Assembly: GCA_021824605.1 (NCBI GenBank)
Contig: JAKAKH010000003.1
Location: 1 to 32,343, forward strand
Direction: 5' to 3'
DNA: 32,343 bases
DNA from: a bacterium
GTDB taxonomy: Bacteria > Patescibacteriota > Minisyncoccia > Phycocordibacterales > Phycocordibacteraceae
Shown: positions 973-14,563 of the stretch, one piece after another
Layout: the number at the start of each line of letters is the position of its first letter
Numbering within the stretch: the first letter of the stretch is position 1
The notes under the pieces: model-generated
Told to the model about the DNA's origin: nothing
The model's database searches: none
Seen by the model: the letters and a program-made list of their open reading frames with translations, nothing else
Program-made: the position numbers and the translations under genes

Positions 973-1045
973 GGCGACTATGGTGTAATGGTTAACACTG
1001 GAGCTTGTGGAGCTCTCGATCAGGGTTCGATTCCCTGTAGTCGCC
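973..1045 (+). tRNA. tRNA-His(GTG), G-1 encoded, CCA not encoded
   Basis: Acceptor GCGACTA/TAGTCGC with G-1:C73; D-stem GTGT/ACAC; anticodon stem GGAGC/GCTCT around TTGTGGA; T-arm CAGGG-TTCGATT-CCCTG. Confidence 0.95.
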
Positions 1046-1214
1046 CTCGAAGAGTCCTCGATTACGAGGGCGCCTAAGCGAGGCGCCTGCGCGCCTCGCG
1101 GCAGGGAATCGAAAGCCGGAGCATGTTTTGTTTCTGAACGAAACAGCGAGGTGGGGTCGCGCATACTTATGAGCGAAGCGAATTAGTAAGGCGTGACCGA
1201 TCCCTGTAGTCGCC
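1046..1214 (+). repeat. Structured tRNA-3'-associated element ending in a 14 bp direct repeat of the tRNA 3' end
   Basis: TCCCTGTAGTCGCC at 1032-1045 and 1201-1214; CAGGGAATCGAA (1102-1113) is the reverse complement of the T-loop and T-stem 3' strand; several internal hairpins. Confidence 0.8.
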
Positions 1215-1270
1215 AACAGATGAGTTGTATATTCATCTCTTTTTCATTTATCGAGTGAGACACTACGAGT

Positions 1271-3468: not shown

Positions 3469-4104
3469 ATGGATGAACAGTTGCATAGCGGAGAAATGGA
3501 TTTGCCTGAGGAGATCGGTATGGCCGACATCGCGCCGACGGTGCGGAAAGAGATCCGTGACGAAGTCACTCCAAAGCCAGAAGACGCACGGTGGTACACC
3601 ATTCACACCTACGCTGGCTATGAGAATGCCGTCGAACGTAACCTCAAACAGCGTATTGAGTCGCTCGGCATGGAAGGGAAGATTTTCGAGGTGATTGTTC
3701 CCACAGAGAAGAAGATTCGCGTAAAAGGCGGAAAGCGAATTGTCGAAGAGGAGAAGATTTATCCTGGCTACATCCTTGTTCGGATGATTGTCGACGACGA
3801 CTCGTGGTTTGTGGTGCGCAATACGCCACGCGTGACCGGCTTTGTCGGCGCCGGGAACACGCCGGTTCCTATGGAGGAGTCTGAGGTCGCGCTTCTTATG
3901 AAGCGTATGACCGCGGAGGCACCGAAGCACCGTATTGACCTCGTCAAGGATGATCAGATTATTATCGCCGATGGTCCGTTCAAGGACCTTGAGGGGAAAG
4001 TAGGCGAGATCGACGAAGATCGCGGGAAGGTCAAAGTCATGGTTTCGATGTTCGGTCGCGAGACGCCGGTCGAACTCGACTTTTTGCAAATCAGGAAGTT
4101 ATAG
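3469..4104 (+). CDS. nusG: Transcription termination/antitermination factor NusG
   Basis: WYTIHTYAGYE, YPGYILV, VRNTPRVTGFVG, KOW motif GPFKDLEG and MFGRETPVELDF. Confidence 0.97.
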   Translation: MDEQLHSGEMDLPEEIGMADIAPTVRKEIRDEVTPKPEDARWYTIHTYAGYENAVERNLKQRIESLGMEGKIFEVIVPTEKKIRVKGGKRIVEEEKIYPGYILVRMIVDDDSWFVVRNTPRVTGFVGAGNTPVPMEESEVALLMKRMTAEAPKHRIDLVKDDQIIIADGPFKDLEGKVGEIDEDRGKVKVMVSMFGRETPVELDFLQIRKL

Positions 4105-4121: not shown

Positions 4122-4544
4122 ATGGCTCAAGTAGTAAAAAAGATAAAACTTCAAATCCCTGGCGGGAAGGCGACCCCAGCACCTCCTGTGGGTACGGCGC
4201 TCGGCCCAGCTGGCGTGAACATTAGTCAGTTCGTGACGCAGTTTAACGACGCGACACGAGACAAGATGGGAACGATTATTCCAGTCGAGCTTTCGGTCTT
4301 CGATGATCGTACGTTCACGTTCATTATGAAGAATCCGCCGGCATCGCGGCTGATTTTGAAAGCACTTGGTATCGAGAAGGGCTCGAGCAAGTCTCAGAAG
4401 GAGCGTGCGGTCGGCACTCTCACGAAGGCGCATATCGATGCCATCGTCGCAGAGAAAATGCCCGACTTGAACGCAAATTCGCCCGAGGCAGCGGCGCGAC
4501 TTATCGCCGGTACGGCGCAGTCGATGGGAATTGCTGTTGAATAA
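4122..4544 (+). CDS. rplK: 50S ribosomal protein L11 (uL11)
   Basis: [26 protein letters not shown] and [10 protein letters not shown] motifs. Confidence 0.97.
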
Positions 4545-4551
4545 AAACGAC

Positions 4552-4600
4552 AATCGACCGAAGCGCGACGGCGCGAGGTGAGGCCGAGAGATTTCAGAAA
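4552..4600 (+). repeat. Degenerate, truncated relative of the tRNA-associated element
   Basis: AATCGA-CCGAAGC-spacer-GCGAGGTGAGGCCGAG matches AATCGA-aag-CCGGAGC-spacer-GCGAGGTGGGGTCGCG at 1107-1161 in order and orientation. Confidence 0.55.
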
Positions 4601-4602
4601 AG

Positions 4603-4636
4603 AAAAACGGCACCCGCAAGGGTGCCGTTTTCGTTT
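4603..4636. terminator. Bidirectional intrinsic terminator between convergent rplK and folA
   Basis: AAAACGGCACCC-GCAA-GGGTGCCGTTTT; GNRA loop with A/T tracts on both sides. Confidence 0.88.
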
Positions 4637-4649
4637 CCCACACAGCCTT

Positions 4650-5168
4650 TCACTTGCGTGTGAAGGTGTGGAATGAAACGGGGTAGTCGTCGTTTGGGTG
4701 CGGTGGCTCGTCCGGCTCGTCCTTGCGGCTCCAGCCAGACGGGTCTAGCTCCGGGAAATGAGCATCGCCGTCAATCGAAGCATGGACTCTTGTGAAGTAG
4801 ATCTTCTGAAGGCGCGGGAGAAATAGCCGATAGACCTCGGTACCGCCGATGACGAAGATCTCAGCGGAACCGTCGCTGTGCATCGCTCCCCAGAGAGCCT
4901 CCTCGAGGGAGTAGGCCGTTATGGCCCCGTGAGTGGTGTAGTCTGGTTGGCGCGTGAGGACGATGTTCGTGCGTCCTGGGAGTGGTCGAAACTTCTCCGG
5001 TATCGATTCCCAGTTTCTGCGTCCCATGATCACGGGATGTCCATTCGTAACTCGCTTGAATCTCTGCAGGTCGCTTGGAATGCGCCAAGGAAGTGTGTTG
5101 TCACGCCCAATGACCCCATTCTCTGCGACCGCCACGATTGCGGAAAGAACTTGCTCTGATTGTTGCAT
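4650..5168 (-). CDS. folA: Dihydrofolate reductase
   Basis: IVAVAENGVIG, LPWRIPSD, IMGRRNWESI, RPLPGRTNIVLT, IGGTEVY and GDAHFP; start set to ATG 5168 (AGGAG SD upstream). Confidence 0.96.
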   Translation of the reverse strand: MQQSEQVLSAIVAVAENGVIGRDNTLPWRIPSDLQRFKRVTNGHPVIMGRRNWESIPEKFRPLPGRTNIVLTRQPDYTTHGAITAYSLEEALWGAMHSDGSAEIFVIGGTEVYRLFLPRLQKIYFTRVHASIDGDAHFPELDPSGWSRKDEPDEPPHPNDDYPVSFHTFTRK

Positions 5169-5196
5169 CACTGTTCTCCTGTGGAATGCCTGACGC

Positions 5197-5225
5197 ATTC
5201 TTCCGTAATAGTAGGGTGCTGTCAA
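5197..5225 (-). promoter_or_regulatory. Promoter for folA
   Basis: Minus strand TTGACA-17 nt-AAGAAT; back-to-back with the thyA promoter. Confidence 0.55.
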
Positions 5226-5227
5226 TC

Positions 5228-5256
5228 TTGTGCCGCTCCTGCTTCGCGCGTAGAGT
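5228..5256 (+). promoter_or_regulatory. Promoter for thyA
   Basis: TTGTGC-17 nt-TAGAGT. Confidence 0.5.
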
Positions 5257-5303
5257 GCATCTCGGACTCTTTTCAACAACCCTCAACCTCGAGGAGATGG
5301 ACA

Positions 5304-6227
5304 ATGGGCAAGAAAATCGTGCCTGATTTGGGTAATTGGGATGGCAATCCCAATGAACACATGTATCTCGGTGCACTGTTCAGTTCACTGGGACATGGTG
5401 ATGTGCGCAAGACGCGGAATGGCTACACGCGGGCGATCTTTGCCGAGCAAGTCGGTTTTGATATGAGTTGTGGGTTTCCAGCGCTGTCAACGAAGCAGCT
5501 TGCATTCAAATCGGTGGTGGCGGAACTCCTGTGGTTCATCGCGGCGGGTAAAGACTCGCCGATTCCGTACCGTTTGTCTATCGGCCGGCTCAATCAGCTG
5601 ATGGGGCTTCCCGAAGACGCGCGTAACCCCCTATGGTCTCACGACCAGGAGCGGTTCGCGGCGGGCGGCAAGGCGCGCTTTCCGGGCGATTGCGGTGTGA
5701 TCTATGGTTCGCAATGGCGCAACTGGAATGGCGAAGGGAAGGACCAGTTGGCGGAGGTGATTGCGACCCTCAAGAAAGACCCATTCAGTCGGTATCACGT
5801 CGTCACGGCGTGGAATCCGTCGAAGCTCAGCGATATGTGCCTGGCGCCCTGTCACATGAAGATGCAATTCTTCGCGGCGCATTCTCGGCGACAAGATGGC
5901 AGGATGTACCTTTCTCTCTCAATGGATCAACGTTCGTGCGACATGTTCCTCGGCGTGCCATTCAATATCGCGTCGTATGCGCTTCTGCTCCATATGGTCG
6001 CGCAATGCGTCGATATGGTTCCGGCCAGGCTCGTCATCACGCTGAACGATTGTCATGTCTACAGCAAGCACTTGAAGCAGGTGCGAATGCAGCTCGGGCG
6101 GGGCACTCTTCCGCCGCCGAGGCTGTGGCTCAATCCTGTTGTCAAGAATATCGATGACTTCAGCATGGACGATGTGAAGCTGGTCGACTATAAGCATCAA
6201 GGGCGCATCAAGGCGCCACTGCTCTAG
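5304..6227 (+). CDS. thyA: Thymidylate synthase (classical ThyA)
   Basis: ELLWF, YGSQWR, AWNP, catalytic LAPCH, QRSCDMFLGVPFNIASYA and DCHVY; GAGGAG SD before ATG 5304. Confidence 0.95.
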   Translation: MGKKIVPDLGNWDGNPNEHMYLGALFSSLGHGDVRKTRNGYTRAIFAEQVGFDMSCGFPALSTKQLAFKSVVAELLWFIAAGKDSPIPYRLSIGRLNQLMGLPEDARNPLWSHDQERFAAGGKARFPGDCGVIYGSQWRNWNGEGKDQLAEVIATLKKDPFSRYHVVTAWNPSKLSDMCLAPCHMKMQFFAAHSRRQDGRMYLSLSMDQRSCDMFLGVPFNIASYALLLHMVAQCVDMVPARLVITLNDCHVYSKHLKQVRMQLGRGTLPPPRLWLNPVVKNIDDFSMDDVKLVDYKHQGRIKAPLL

Positions 6228-11761: not shown

Positions 11762-14563
11762 ATGGCTGAATTGCCCGAGAAATCTGAAGCCGCAAAGCGC
11801 GAGGAAGCAATACTCGCGTTCTGGGAGCGTGAACGTATCTTCGAGAAGACACTCGCGAAGGAATCTCCGAAAGGAGAATACGTCTTTTATGACGGACCGC
11901 CGTTTGCGACAGGGACTCCGCACTACGGCCACATCGTTGCAAGCGTCATCAAGGACGTTGTGCCGCGGTACTGGACGATGCGTGGCTATCACGTGCCACG
12001 CGTCTGGGGGTGGGATTGTCACGGCCTGCCGATCGAGAATATCGTCGAGAAGGAGCTTGGCTTCAAGCACAAGAAAGATATTAAGGAGTACGGGATCGCG
12101 AATTTTAATGAACGCTGTCGCGAGCGGGTGCTGACGTATGTCGACTACTGGAAGACATTCATCCCGCGCATTGGTCGTTGGGCAGATATGGAGCATGCGT
12201 ACCGCACGATGGATAAGCCGTTTATGGAGTCGGTATGGTGGGTGTTCAAAACGATTTATGAAAAGGGGTTGGTGTATGAAGATTATCGGGCGATGCATGT
12301 GTGTCCACGATGTGAGACAACGCTTTCGCAACAGGAAGTGTCAGAGGGGTATAAAGACGTCAAAGACATCTCAGTAACGGTGAAGTTCAAACTGAAGCAT
12401 CCTGAGAAGCTCGGTCTCTCGGGGGATGTGTATATGCTTGCGTGGACCACCACGCCATGGACTCTGCCGGGCAATGTCGCGCTTGCGGTTGGGAATGACA
12501 TTACGTATGTCGAGATAAAACAAGAAGGAGAGTCATATATCTTAGCGAAACAGAGATTGGGAGTTTTGCAAAAGGAGATTGTTATAACAGAAGGGAAGGA
12601 ATTCAAGGGCAGTGAGCTTGTCGGTCTTGAGTACGAACCACCATTCGATTACTACATTAAGGATACGACCCTCAAGAATTACGAAAATGGGTGGAAAGTA
12701 TACGCAGCAGACTTCGTAACCGATGAGAGTGGTACCGGTATCGCACACGAAGCGCCGGCTTTTGGTGCAGATGACTGGGAACTCTCGAAGAAAGTAAATC
12801 TGCCATTTGTGCAGCACGTGAACGGCGATGGCACTATGAAAAGCGAAGTCACGGCTTTTGCCGGGATGGAGGTGAAGCCACGTTCTGAAGACGACAGTGT
12901 GCGTCTCGGGACCGACATTGCCGTTTTGAAATATCTGCAAGAGCACGGCACCTTTTTCTCAAAAGAGAATATTACGCACTCGTACCCGCATTGCTGGCGT
13001 TGTGATACACCGCTTCTGAATTATGCGACCTCGTCATGGTTCGTCTCCGTGACGAAACTGAAAGAGAACCTGCTTGAGAACGCCAAGAACATCTCGTGGT
13101 CGCCGGCACACATGAAAGAGGGTCGTTTCGGAAAGTGGCTTCTCGGAGCTCGTGACTGGTCGATCTCCCGTCAGCGATTCTGGGCCAGTGCTATTCCGAT
13201 GTGGCGCTGCGAGAGCTGCAAGGCAGTCCGGGTCTTCGGGAGCGTTACTGAGCTTGAAGAAGCAAGCGGGAAGCAGGTGGATGATTTGCACAAGCACATT
13301 GTCGATGAGATTACCGTACCGTGTTCGTGCGGGGGAGAGATGCGCCGCATTCCAGATGTGCTCGACACGTGGTTTGATTCCGGCTCGATGCCCTACGGCG
13401 AGAAGCACTATCCTTTTGCCGATAAGGAACATTTTGATGCACAGTTTCCGGCCCAGTTTATTGCTGAAGGAACTGATCAGACGCGGGCGTGGTTTTACTA
13501 CCTCCACGTGCTCGGCGGAGCTCTCTTCGGGAAGAATGCTTTTCAGCATGTCATCGTTAACGGCATTGTCTTAGCCGAGGATGGAAAGAAGATGTCGAAG
13601 CGGTTGCAGAATTATCCCGACCCGATGGAAGTTGTGGAGAAGTATGGTGCTGATGCGCTTCGACTCTACCTCCTCTCGTCGCCCGTAGTGCAGGCCGAGG
13701 ATCTCGCTTTTTCAGAAAGCAGCGTTGATGAAATAGCAAAGAAAAATGTGGGACGGCTTCAAAACGTGCTCGCATTCTATGAGCTCTATGCGGATGGTAC
13801 TGTGCGCGCTGCTACCAGTGACCATATTCTCGACCGATGGATGCTTGCTCGTCTCGAGGAACTTCTCAAAGAGACAACAGCGGGATATGAGCAGTACCGG
13901 CTTGATGCCGCGACTCGTCCGCTCGCGCTTTTCATCGATGACCTGTCGGTTTGGTATATACGACGCTCGCGCGATCGTTTCAAAGAAGATACGGCGGACA
14001 AGAAAGTAGCGCTCGCAACGCTCCGCTACGTGCTCGTGCAATTGGCGACGATCATGGCGCCGGCGATGCCGTTTATCGCCGAGGAACTGTTCCAGAAAGT
14101 ACGGGAAGAAGGGGATCCTGAGAGCGTGCATCTTGTTGGTTGGCCAGAAGTAACTGCTATACAAAACGAAAATCTCATTCCTGAAATGGCACAGGTGCGA
14201 AGTCTCGCATCTGAAGCACTTCAACTTCGCCAGAAAGTTGGTATCAAAGTGCGTCAGCCACTCGCATCACTTTCAATCCCCGGTCTTCTTTCTGAAGAAC
14301 TTGCAGGTATTCTTGCGGATGAAATAAACGTAAAGCAGATTATCTCAGGGAGCACAAAAGTTGAGCTCGATAGTAACCTCACACCAGAGCTCATCAAGGA
14401 GGGCGATGAGCGTGAGATGGCAAGCGCGGTTGCACAAGCGCGGAAGGCGGAAGGGTTTGCGCCAAGCGATCACGCTGAGACGAAGATTACTCCAGAAGGG
14501 AAGCATATGGTGATACTCTCAACTGGTGAAGTGCGGTTCGATCTCGTTCGCGATGCGGCATAA
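11762..14563 (+). CDS. ileS: Isoleucine--tRNA ligase, type 2 (eukaryote/archaea-like)
   Basis: FYDGPPFATGTPHYGH, GWDCHGLP, editing-domain WTTTPWTLPGN, DWSISRQRFW, DQTRAWFY and KMSKR; no C-terminal Zn finger of type 1. Confidence 0.95.
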   Translation: MAELPEKSEAAKREEAILAFWERERIFEKTLAKESPKGEYVFYDGPPFATGTPHYGHIVASVIKDVVPRYWTMRGYHVPRVWGWDCHGLPIENIVEKELGFKHKKDIKEYGIANFNERCRERVLTYVDYWKTFIPRIGRWADMEHAYRTMDKPFMESVWWVFKTIYEKGLVYEDYRAMHVCPRCETTLSQQEVSEGYKDVKDISVTVKFKLKHPEKLGLSGDVYMLAWTTTPWTLPGNVALAVGNDITYVEIKQEGESYILAKQRLGVLQKEIVITEGKEFKGSELVGLEYEPPFDYYIKDTTLKNYENGWKVYAADFVTDESGTGIAHEAPAFGADDWELSKKVNLPFVQHVNGDGTMKSEVTAFAGMEVKPRSEDDSVRLGTDIAVLKYLQEHGTFFSKENITHSYPHCWRCDTPLLNYATSSWFVSVTKLKENLLENAKNISWSPAHMKEGRFGKWLLGARDWSISRQRFWASAIPMWRCESCKAVRVFGSVTELEEASGKQVDDLHKHIVDEITVPCSCGGEMRRIPDVLDTWFDSGSMPYGEKHYPFADKEHFDAQFPAQFIAEGTDQTRAWFYYLHVLGGALFGKNAFQHVIVNGIVLAEDGKKMSKRLQNYPDPMEVVEKYGADALRLYLLSSPVVQAEDLAFSESSVDEIAKKNVGRLQNVLAFYELYADGTVRAATSDHILDRWMLARLEELLKETTAGYEQYRLDAATRPLALFIDDLSVWYIRRSRDRFKEDTADKKVALATLRYVLVQLATIMAPAMPFIAEELFQKVREEGDPESVHLVGWPEVTAIQNENLIPEMAQVRSLASEALQLRQKVGIKVRQPLASLSIPGLLSEELAGILADEINVKQIISGSTKVELDSNLTPELIKEGDEREMASAVAQARKAEGFAPSDHAETKITPEGKHMVILSTGEVRFDLVRDAA

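Follow-up and report, generated by a model that had tools for sequence, protein, structure and literature searches.

Tyrosine-integrase islands and prophages that occupy transfer RNA (tRNA) and transfer-messenger RNA (tmRNA) genes insert over the stretch from the T-loop to the 3' end, regenerating the gene end and leaving a displaced duplicate of it. Integrase-less derivatives of such islands are known as cis-mobilizable elements (CIMEs); tandem accretion occurs, and the 3' ends of tmRNA and protein genes serve as alternative targets. Elements of the IS200/IS605 type use short DNA guides that pair with the cleavage site, repetitive extragenic palindromic (REP) sequences and REPINs act with RAYT proteins, and integron attC sites and the attP of CTX phage are recombined as folded single strands.

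The Escherichia coli tRNA-linked repeats (TLRs) are described as gene-less units of about 100–180 nt located directly behind tRNA or rRNA genes, with 22 units at ten loci and one to five units per locus, the last 18–19 bp of each being the 3' end of the upstream gene (PMC8144298). They include the tyrT-tyrV repeats and RttR (Egan and Landy 1978, Rudd 1999, as cited in PMC8144298). That account gives their function as unknown, with the exception of three rrn-linked TLRs that are transcribed and processed to small RNAs, and discusses the repeated 3' end of the rrn-linked units as a processing signal (PMC8144298). Here we describe a structured appendage behind a tRNA-His gene, at positions 973–1216 of a 32,343-nt window that comprises contig C8 (JAKAKH010000003.1) of a 0.58-Mb, 49-contig, 75% complete assembly (GCA_021824605.1) of a bacterium of the family Phycocordibacteraceae. 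The appendage belongs to a structured multi-copy insertion module at gene 3' ends. On balance, and with some reserve, we read it as one copy of a gene-less module of ~150–170 nt that is non-autonomous and replaces the 3' end of its target gene.

Anatomy of the tRNA-His locus

The host tRNA-His(GUG), in which CCA is not encoded, is followed by a compact series of repeats, mirror blocks and hairpins (window coordinates):

974–1046 with G-1 at 973, forward strand: tRNA-His(GUG), the host gene (ARAGORN; Rfam RF00005, 63.5 bits)
1032–1045, forward strand: copy 1 of the direct repeat, comprising the last T-loop base, the T-stem 3' strand, the acceptor 3' strand and the discriminator; 100% identity with 1201–1214
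1046–1064, forward strand: linker with a small hairpin (CCTCG ... CGAGG region; RNA fold) and lacking a T-run in the window copy
1065–1076, forward strand: anti-acceptor block directed against 1038–1049 (acceptor 3' strand plus 4 nt of the copy 1 trailer); 12 nt, 92% complementary
1078–1099, forward strand: hp2, a perfect hairpin of 9 bp (loop CTGC) that separates the two guide blocks (inverted repeat; 9 of 9 pairs with compensatory changes)
1102–1113, forward strand: anti-T 'guide' block CAGGGAATCGAA, exact reverse complement of 1026–1037
1115–1153, forward strand: P1 (GCC GGA GC ... GC GA GGU), whose purine-rich internal loop is conserved and which encloses the P2 hairpin (about 1124–1145); model helices 2–4
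1155–1198, forward strand: P3, a long hairpin (GGTCGCGC ... GCGTGACC) with a conserved G.U pair and GAGCGAAGCGA at its tip; model helix 5
1199–1214, forward strand: copy 2, formed by the 14-nt duplicate preceded by GA, a degenerate T-loop remnant, and abutting the ancestral downstream flank (direct repeat)
1215–1245, arms 1215–1223/1233–1241, forward strand: AT-rich hairpin and T-run after copy 2 (inverted repeat; below the terminator-scan threshold)

A repeat scan found TCCCTGTAGTCGCC exactly twice, at 1032–1045 and 1201–1214, and so confirmed the second copy of the last 14 nt of the tRNA that a preliminary description of this locus had reported. The antisense T-arm block noted there is likewise an exact reverse complement, mirroring the tRNA from T54 through the T-loop to the end of the T-stem 3' strand (1026–1037); its last 2 nt match T54–T55, to the left of the repeat start. 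The anti-acceptor block at 1065–1076 is an additional block that had been overlooked. The hairpins already listed were all recovered at their positions, namely hp2 (arms GCGAGGCGC at 1078–1086 and GCGCCTCGC at 1091–1099), the TGTTTC/GAAACA and GGTCGCGC/GCGTGACC pairings, both present in computed folds, and the small CCTCG/CGAGG hairpin of the linker.

Folded as RNA, 973–1216 has a minimum free energy (MFE) of −122 kcal/mol (z = −8.1, with 0 of 200 shuffles as good). The 5' strands of the acceptor and T-stem pair with copy 2 in this structure and copy 1 pairs with the antisense blocks, bearing out the proposal of two mutually exclusive folds. The appendage alone forms a closed three-way junction (z = −4.5). 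An Rfam search of the whole window at gathering thresholds returned nothing on the element, the tRNA being the only match there.

The hairpin and T-run at 1215–1245 are probably the original terminator of the tRNA. Because a terminator scan of the window copy's linker (1046–1064) found none and the AT-rich hairpin and T-run follow copy 2, co-transcription of the appendage with the tRNA is likely here. It is not a rule of the family: a terminator-like hairpin with a T-run occupies the linker in 14 of 38 copies, and a terminator-like hairpin lies within 80 nt after copy 2 in 9 of 26.

Copies in the genome and among relatives

Nine of the 35 tRNA genes that ARAGORN finds in the whole assembly repeat their own last 12–14 nt at most 260 nt downstream, which puts the window duplicate far beyond chance. 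Six of these nine loci share one layout (tRNA, linker, anti-acceptor block, hp2, anti-T block, two-arm core, duplicate), and the same design stands behind seven of the 35 genes, with two core types. Type A follows tRNA-His, tRNA-Ala and tRNA-Leu(tag), with a fourth copy behind tRNA-Asp (4 strong model matches), and type B follows tRNA-Trp, tRNA-Gln and tRNA-Lys (3 copies). Distant copies of tRNA tails in this genome are mostly chance 13-mers within genes.

We built a covariance model of the type-A core (R1), which matches 128 of 151 sampled genomes of the same order, with 150 listed matches and 957 more (>1,100 in total) when at most 22 candidates were scored per genome. In a phylum-wide sample, R1 matched 7 of the 149 genomes that lie outside the family and none of the 5 that represent other orders of the class. 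Six of these outlying genomes supplied seven loci, all of them true copies located behind tRNAs, with an encoded CCA within both repeat copies that is also mirrored in the anti-acceptor block at one locus (L246). Among 49 R1 matches in fetched loci, a same-strand tRNA lay at most 81 nt upstream in 32 and farther away in 4; the remaining 13 followed tmRNA-like or tRNA-Met-like 3' ends or lay in arrays, at sequence edges or in topA. Host tRNAs comprise nearly all isotypes, with type A behind many different tRNAs in relatives, and the core stays constant while the antisense block and the 3' duplicate vary with the host tRNA, as the preliminary description had predicted. Neither a sequence restricted to this locus nor the remnant of an ordinary integrase island, two outcomes named there as refuting, was encountered: copies are numerous elsewhere, they co-vary with their own tRNAs, and behind the element lies no integrase island.

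Other tRNA-derived sequences and features of tRNA ends accompany these copies. The duplicates behind tRNA-Thr(tgt) (C11:2149–2390) and tRNA-Ile(gat) (C38:13189–13508) are longer partial tRNA copies that begin in the anticodon arm or T-arm, extend to the 3' end and have no structured core; they resemble conventional att-type scars or what is left of a tandem. For tRNA-Met(cat), a different contig has a partial copy that covers the anticodon loop through the 3' end, and antisense fragments occur ~3 kb from the gene (C25:~3700–3770 and C37:15599–18900); together these may represent a further island at this tRNA. The tRNA genes of the order mostly have CA rather than CCA after the discriminator, with or without an element, and some relatives encode the full CCA. 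In genome G170, contigs C5 and C8 both end in the same element behind tRNA-Gly(ccc) (loci L234 and L235); the element broke the assembly there, and caution is needed when identical 'copies' are counted at contig ends.

A conserved fold on the tRNA-sense strand

An alignment of 14 type-A cores yielded 37 consensus pairs, 31 of them with compensatory changes. When 50 further copies were aligned to the model, 96.5% of 1,693 cells were paired, compared with 64.4% in shuffles and 34–45% with partners slid, although this alignment was fitted to the model and is hence biased toward the structure. All 37 pairs change on both sides in these copies, and the covariance model, a check that the preliminary description had suggested, finds many further members. 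The G.U pair of P3 is conserved in 42 of 48 copies, which assigns the fold to the tRNA-sense strand. The core invariably ends in GTGAC, and the junction between guide and core is constant in all copies.

Many copy 2 sequences carry a mini-hairpin of 14–16 nt, a 3-bp stem capped by a TACT or TAAT loop, that directly follows the CGA remaining from the T-loop, as at loci L008, L037, L047, L059, L063 and L065, and the exact repeat then begins at T59. A similar GTRTACT motif joins the two hairpins of the type-B core.

The guide block and its target

The mirror block tracks its target across the insertion point. For the reverse complement of T54 to the T-stem end (12 nt), we determined the best match within 130 nt downstream. 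Cognate guide–tRNA pairs were exact in 14 of 45 cases and matched at 11 or more of 12 positions in 30 of 45, against 2 and 57, respectively, of 1,960 non-cognate pairs. Guide–target cells were Watson–Crick in 451 of 492, with 12 G.T versus 2 A.C, and position 65 was often unpaired. The duplicate starts most often at C56, immediately after GTGAC (17 of 45); it is 14 nt long in the window and 15–24 nt in most relatives. The end of the guide always complements positions 54–55, to the left of the repeat, and overlaps the insertion point between T55 and C56 by exactly 2 nt. The rare T-loops TCCGATT (two cases) and TGCAATT (one) are mirrored exactly at positions 54–55, and copies at topA mirror their 2 upstream nt (TA or CA) in 5 of 5. 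Where the trailers differ, the anti-acceptor block reaches into the trailer of copy 1 in 3 of 24 cases and into that of copy 2 in 0 of 24.

Insertion at tRNA and topA 3' ends

Throughout the genus, tRNA-Leu(tag) has a conserved promoter and gene downstream of it. Four same-genus genomes are element-free there, with the promoter 0–23 nt after the tRNA; the conserved promoter abuts copy 2 in our genome, and one genome has a 31-nt remnant and an 11-nt copy. The element is also absent from the tRNA-His genes of 13 of 16 relatives, so that empty sites, whose existence the preliminary description had proposed to check, are present at orthologous tRNA loci. Perfect tandem arrays occur in two genomes, where they comprise three identical 148-nt units and two units, respectively, and decayed copies without guide or duplicate exist. 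One genome has tRNA-Cys and tRNA-Leu cores that are identical over 65 nt, with unrelated guide, hp2 and linker. CCA follows copy 2 alone in 6 of 32 copies and copy 1 alone in 1 of 32, a distribution that fits copy 2 as the original gene end.

The insertion junction falls between T55 and C56 in the tRNA T-loop and between NN and C(G/C)AAAAC in topA. The same core lies at the topA 3' end in five genomes of three families (L220, L221, L222, L230 and L236), and three others are empty. The topA repeat starts at C(G/C)AAAAC, which resembles the CGA context of the T-loop, and extends for 60–75 nt to about the stop codon, so that the reading frame is completed by copy 1; hp2 directly follows the stop codon, and the anti-acceptor block is absent. 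The last 20–25 codons of topA are thereby duplicated around the structured core. Two topA-end copies in one genome are ~75–80% identical, both being open frames with zinc-ribbon cysteines.

Mode of insertion and rival explanations

The best-supported reading of these data is the one that the preliminary description put first, a miniature tRNA-targeting element that is non-autonomous and has ends matching its host tRNA; the alternative suggestion of a decoy att site made there gained no support. The element sits inside the 3' end of the target gene, with a complete gene end (copy 1) upstream and the displaced original end (copy 2) downstream, and between the copies lie the variable linker, often with a terminator, the two-part guide split by hp2 and the conserved two-arm core. 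Pairing of the guide with copy 2 on the tRNA-sense strand closes the three-way junction; the guide matches the intact target equally well, and does so over the insertion point. We infer that the 3' flank forming copy 1 is carried by the element, and its travelling with the element would leave the tRNA or the topA frame intact. Homing would be to guide-pairable sites while the DNA or a transcript is single-stranded, with a catalyst supplied in trans. The regenerated left junction would again be a target, which could account for the tandem arrays. A read-through transcript may mimic the top half of a tRNA, with copy 2 keeping the guide from sequestering the 3' half of the real tRNA.

Several results weigh against an insertion module of this kind. 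The element has no open reading frame (ORF), and no enzyme explains its mobility. The recombinases of the genome comprise a Xer-like protein, a 380-aa tyrosine recombinase, two large serine recombinases and one Y1/HUH-like protein; RVT_1 (the reverse transcriptase expected of a retroelement such as a retron, group II intron or DGR), TnpB-type and IS110-type proteins were unmatched in this 75% complete genome. The Y1/HUH (RAYT-like) protein was rejected as a partner, since its distribution (87 of 151 genomes) does not match that of the element: there are genomes with 9–20 elements that lack it (for example, those with 16, 20 and 15 matches), and 8 of the 20 listed genomes without an element have it. 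The 380-aa tyrosine integrase was rejected as well: only 2 of 151 genomes have a homologue, and one of those two lacks the element. No autonomous, cargo-bearing version appeared among 47 loci and 80 scored viral-contig loci, and near-identical dispersed copies at different tRNAs were not seen; the copies are old and diverged with their structure kept, which is compatible with a selected RNA too. In four metagenome DNA runs, contigs over 600–1700 showed no excision or empty allele: two carry the element and none joins across, and one joint, from 1046 to 1633, looks like the tRNA-His of another organism. The assignment of the element-borne repeat copy, finally, is drawn from indirect signs.

The surroundings of the elements were searched in the same way. 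An all-against-all comparison of the ORFs at 47 element loci gave no recurrent neighbour family except smpB beside tmRNA, and no integrase was found within 3 kb around the elements examined. A scan of viral contigs with a 16-nt core motif returned 119 loci, of which 80 were scored with R1. Only one of these 80 contained true elements, three in a tandem array that follows a small nrdD-like ORF, and the 3 kb there had no integrase. In the Y1/IS200-like protein of this genome (222 aa, C24:13281–13946), the HUH motif is H-F-D. Genomes often have several copies of the protein, two of them as many as 13 and 12, and it behaves like an independently expanding family. The 380-aa integrase (4499–5638) adjoins the two large serine recombinases (577 and 508 aa, at 5818 and 12093) at about 4.5–13.6 kb of contig C22, next to tRNA-Gln(ctg) at 13532–13603, and together they probably form one integrated island.

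Among the rival explanations, each of them a serious one, we regard as possible but unlikely an RNA that serves the host or hitch-hikes with it: a read-through module and tRNA-top-half mimic, excised by tRNA end-maturation enzymes or acting as a pre-tRNA folding switch. In such a mimic, the anti-acceptor block and copy 2 would form the acceptor stem, the anti-T block and copy 2 an extended T-stem, hp2 would stand for the tRNA body and the core for the T-loop. The strong sense-strand covariation, the conserved G.U pair and purine-rich internal loop, the two competing states in MFE folds and the paired changes in hp2 and P3 by which orthologous topA-linked copies of one genus differ all speak for it, as do the three rrn-linked E. 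coli TLRs reported as processed small RNAs (PMC8144298). However, the terminator-like hairpin and T-run that precede the element in 14 of 38 copies argue against it and weaken the pre-tRNA processing switch of the preliminary description, whose alternative folds were nevertheless recovered. Most orthologous tRNA-His and tRNA-Leu genes are element-free and decayed copies exist, so the element is dispensable; the topA-linked copies are without an acceptor mimic, and the closed fold needs neither the complementarity to positions 54–55 nor that to the copy 1 trailer.

The direct repeat of the 3' end, the replaced gene end, the tandem accretion and the choice of tRNA, tmRNA and protein-gene 3' ends would also fit an attP-only derivative of integrase islands or phages, a minimal attachment region integrated into the T-loop by a tyrosine recombinase acting in trans. 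The enzyme could belong to a phage or plasmid absent from the assemblies or be a host Xer-type protein acting on a folded single strand, and a Xer-like recombinase is encoded in this genome. We nevertheless consider this origin distinctly unlikely, as the guide/core junction is constant in all copies, which are therefore not independent deletion remnants; repeats and mirror blocks are tailored to >20 different target specificities, no integrase shares the distribution of the element or was found in the 3 kb around the elements, and true elements occupy only 1 of 80 motif-matching viral-contig loci. Least probable of all, in our view, is an origin without dedicated machinery, by template switching and gene conversion at the palindromic, universally conserved T-arm, with quasi-palindrome correction keeping the mirror matched. 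It would accommodate the failure to find a partner protein (the Y1-like and 380-aa integrase distributions were tested), the Cys and Leu cores that are identical over 65 nt with the rest unrelated, as gene conversion predicts, and the repeats of some copies that take in a few nt of the local trailer. It sits poorly with the fixed register, in which the guide ends 2 nt left of the repeat and the core ends in GTGAC, with the G.T pairs of the guide, which favour selected pairing over templated copying, and with the interruption of the mirror copy by hp2 at a fixed place.

Returning to the non-autonomous insertion module, a bolder version would have insertion guided by nucleic acid without a protein of its own: the guide would pair across the T55–C56 junction, the GTGAC-ending core would perform or recruit strand transfer, and the element would be a minimal intron-like homing element whose spare gene end permits survival in essential genes, with the E. 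coli TLRs as decayed cousins. We offer this as speculation and rate it improbable. If the TLRs were indeed decayed cousins, this would explain a puzzle open since 1978.

Whatever its mode of movement, about a fifth of the tRNA genes of this genome (7 of 35) carry the module, which is among the commonest non-coding features of these ultra-small genomes and occurs in most sampled genomes of the order. It is absent from Rfam, and our full-text literature search found no description of the family; a preprint on bacterial tRNA mimics appears to deal with different motifs. That the guide covers the insertion point and varies in step with its target suggests that targets are chosen by pairing, with no element-encoded protein. 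The modules break assemblies and may be mistaken for att scars or riboswitches in annotation.

Comparison with known systems

Islands and CIMEs, REPIN–RAYT systems, miniature inverted-repeat transposable elements (MITEs) and known ribozymes each fail a defining feature. Like integrase islands and CIMEs, the element is flanked by a direct repeat of the tRNA 3' end resembling attL and attR; unlike them, it has no integrase and no cargo, totals about 150 nt and belongs to an element family with dozens of target specificities, a mirror copy of the target and hairpins that vary in sequence while conserving structure. We rejected an integrase-mobilized island or CIME given an element without an ORF, homologues of the 380-aa integrase in 2 of 151 genomes and no recurrent neighbour family at 47 loci. 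The preliminary description had remarked that att duplications do not need an antisense T-arm, and this holds.

With REP/REPIN–RAYT and IS200/IS605 systems the module shares non-autonomous hairpin elements, confinement to one strand and, probably, targeting by pairing in folded single-stranded DNA, but its guide has 11–25 nt rather than 4, it would bring along a new end for the gene, and a long direct repeat remains after insertion. A REP/REPIN–RAYT system was rejected because, over the 151 genomes, association between the element and the Y1/HUH homologue is weak at best. Integron attC and CTX-phage attP(+) sites resemble it in conserving structure rather than sequence, in a strand-specific fold whose side hairpin marks the strand and in forming arrays; in contrast to these, its crossover lies at the tip side of the closing stem, not the base, and its targets are gene 3' ends. 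Recombinase searches of the genome identified no IntI-type enzyme. A MITE of a DDE transposon was rejected because the inverted and direct repeats copy the target and differ at every locus; the direct repeat is not of fixed length, ranging from 10 to about 75 nt and running to the gene end. Group I and II introns and known self-cleaving ribozymes were rejected with Rfam 15 (4,227 families), none of whose families matches the element.

The TLRs also lie directly behind a tRNA and end in a repeat of the 3' end of that gene, 14 nt long in the window. At the K-12 tyrT-tyrV locus we found four 19-nt copies of the tRNA tail, one being the tyrV tRNA gene's own 3' end, and each unit has a mirror block of 8–10 nt whose pairing with the tail closes a fold of several hairpins; a design with a mirror block therefore has some precedent. 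The GAGCGAAGCGA motif is common to the tyrT locus and the window (1172–1182). Unlike the guide of the module, the E. coli mirror block stops short of T-loop positions 54–58, and the TLR fold is no better than shuffles (z = −0.9). R1 scores at most 2.7 bits on the tyrT units, and Rfam, whose families include RtT, gave no match on the element in the window region (E up to 10) or on those of 15 further loci (E up to 1). With no profile-level homology either way, the TLRs are not a demonstrated relative but are, by design, the closest known kind. The family differs from them in being at least 10 times more numerous per genome relative to size, in its conserved three-way-junction core and in having topA as a further target, and it offers a large, structure-rich set with which the E. 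coli TLRs can be compared.
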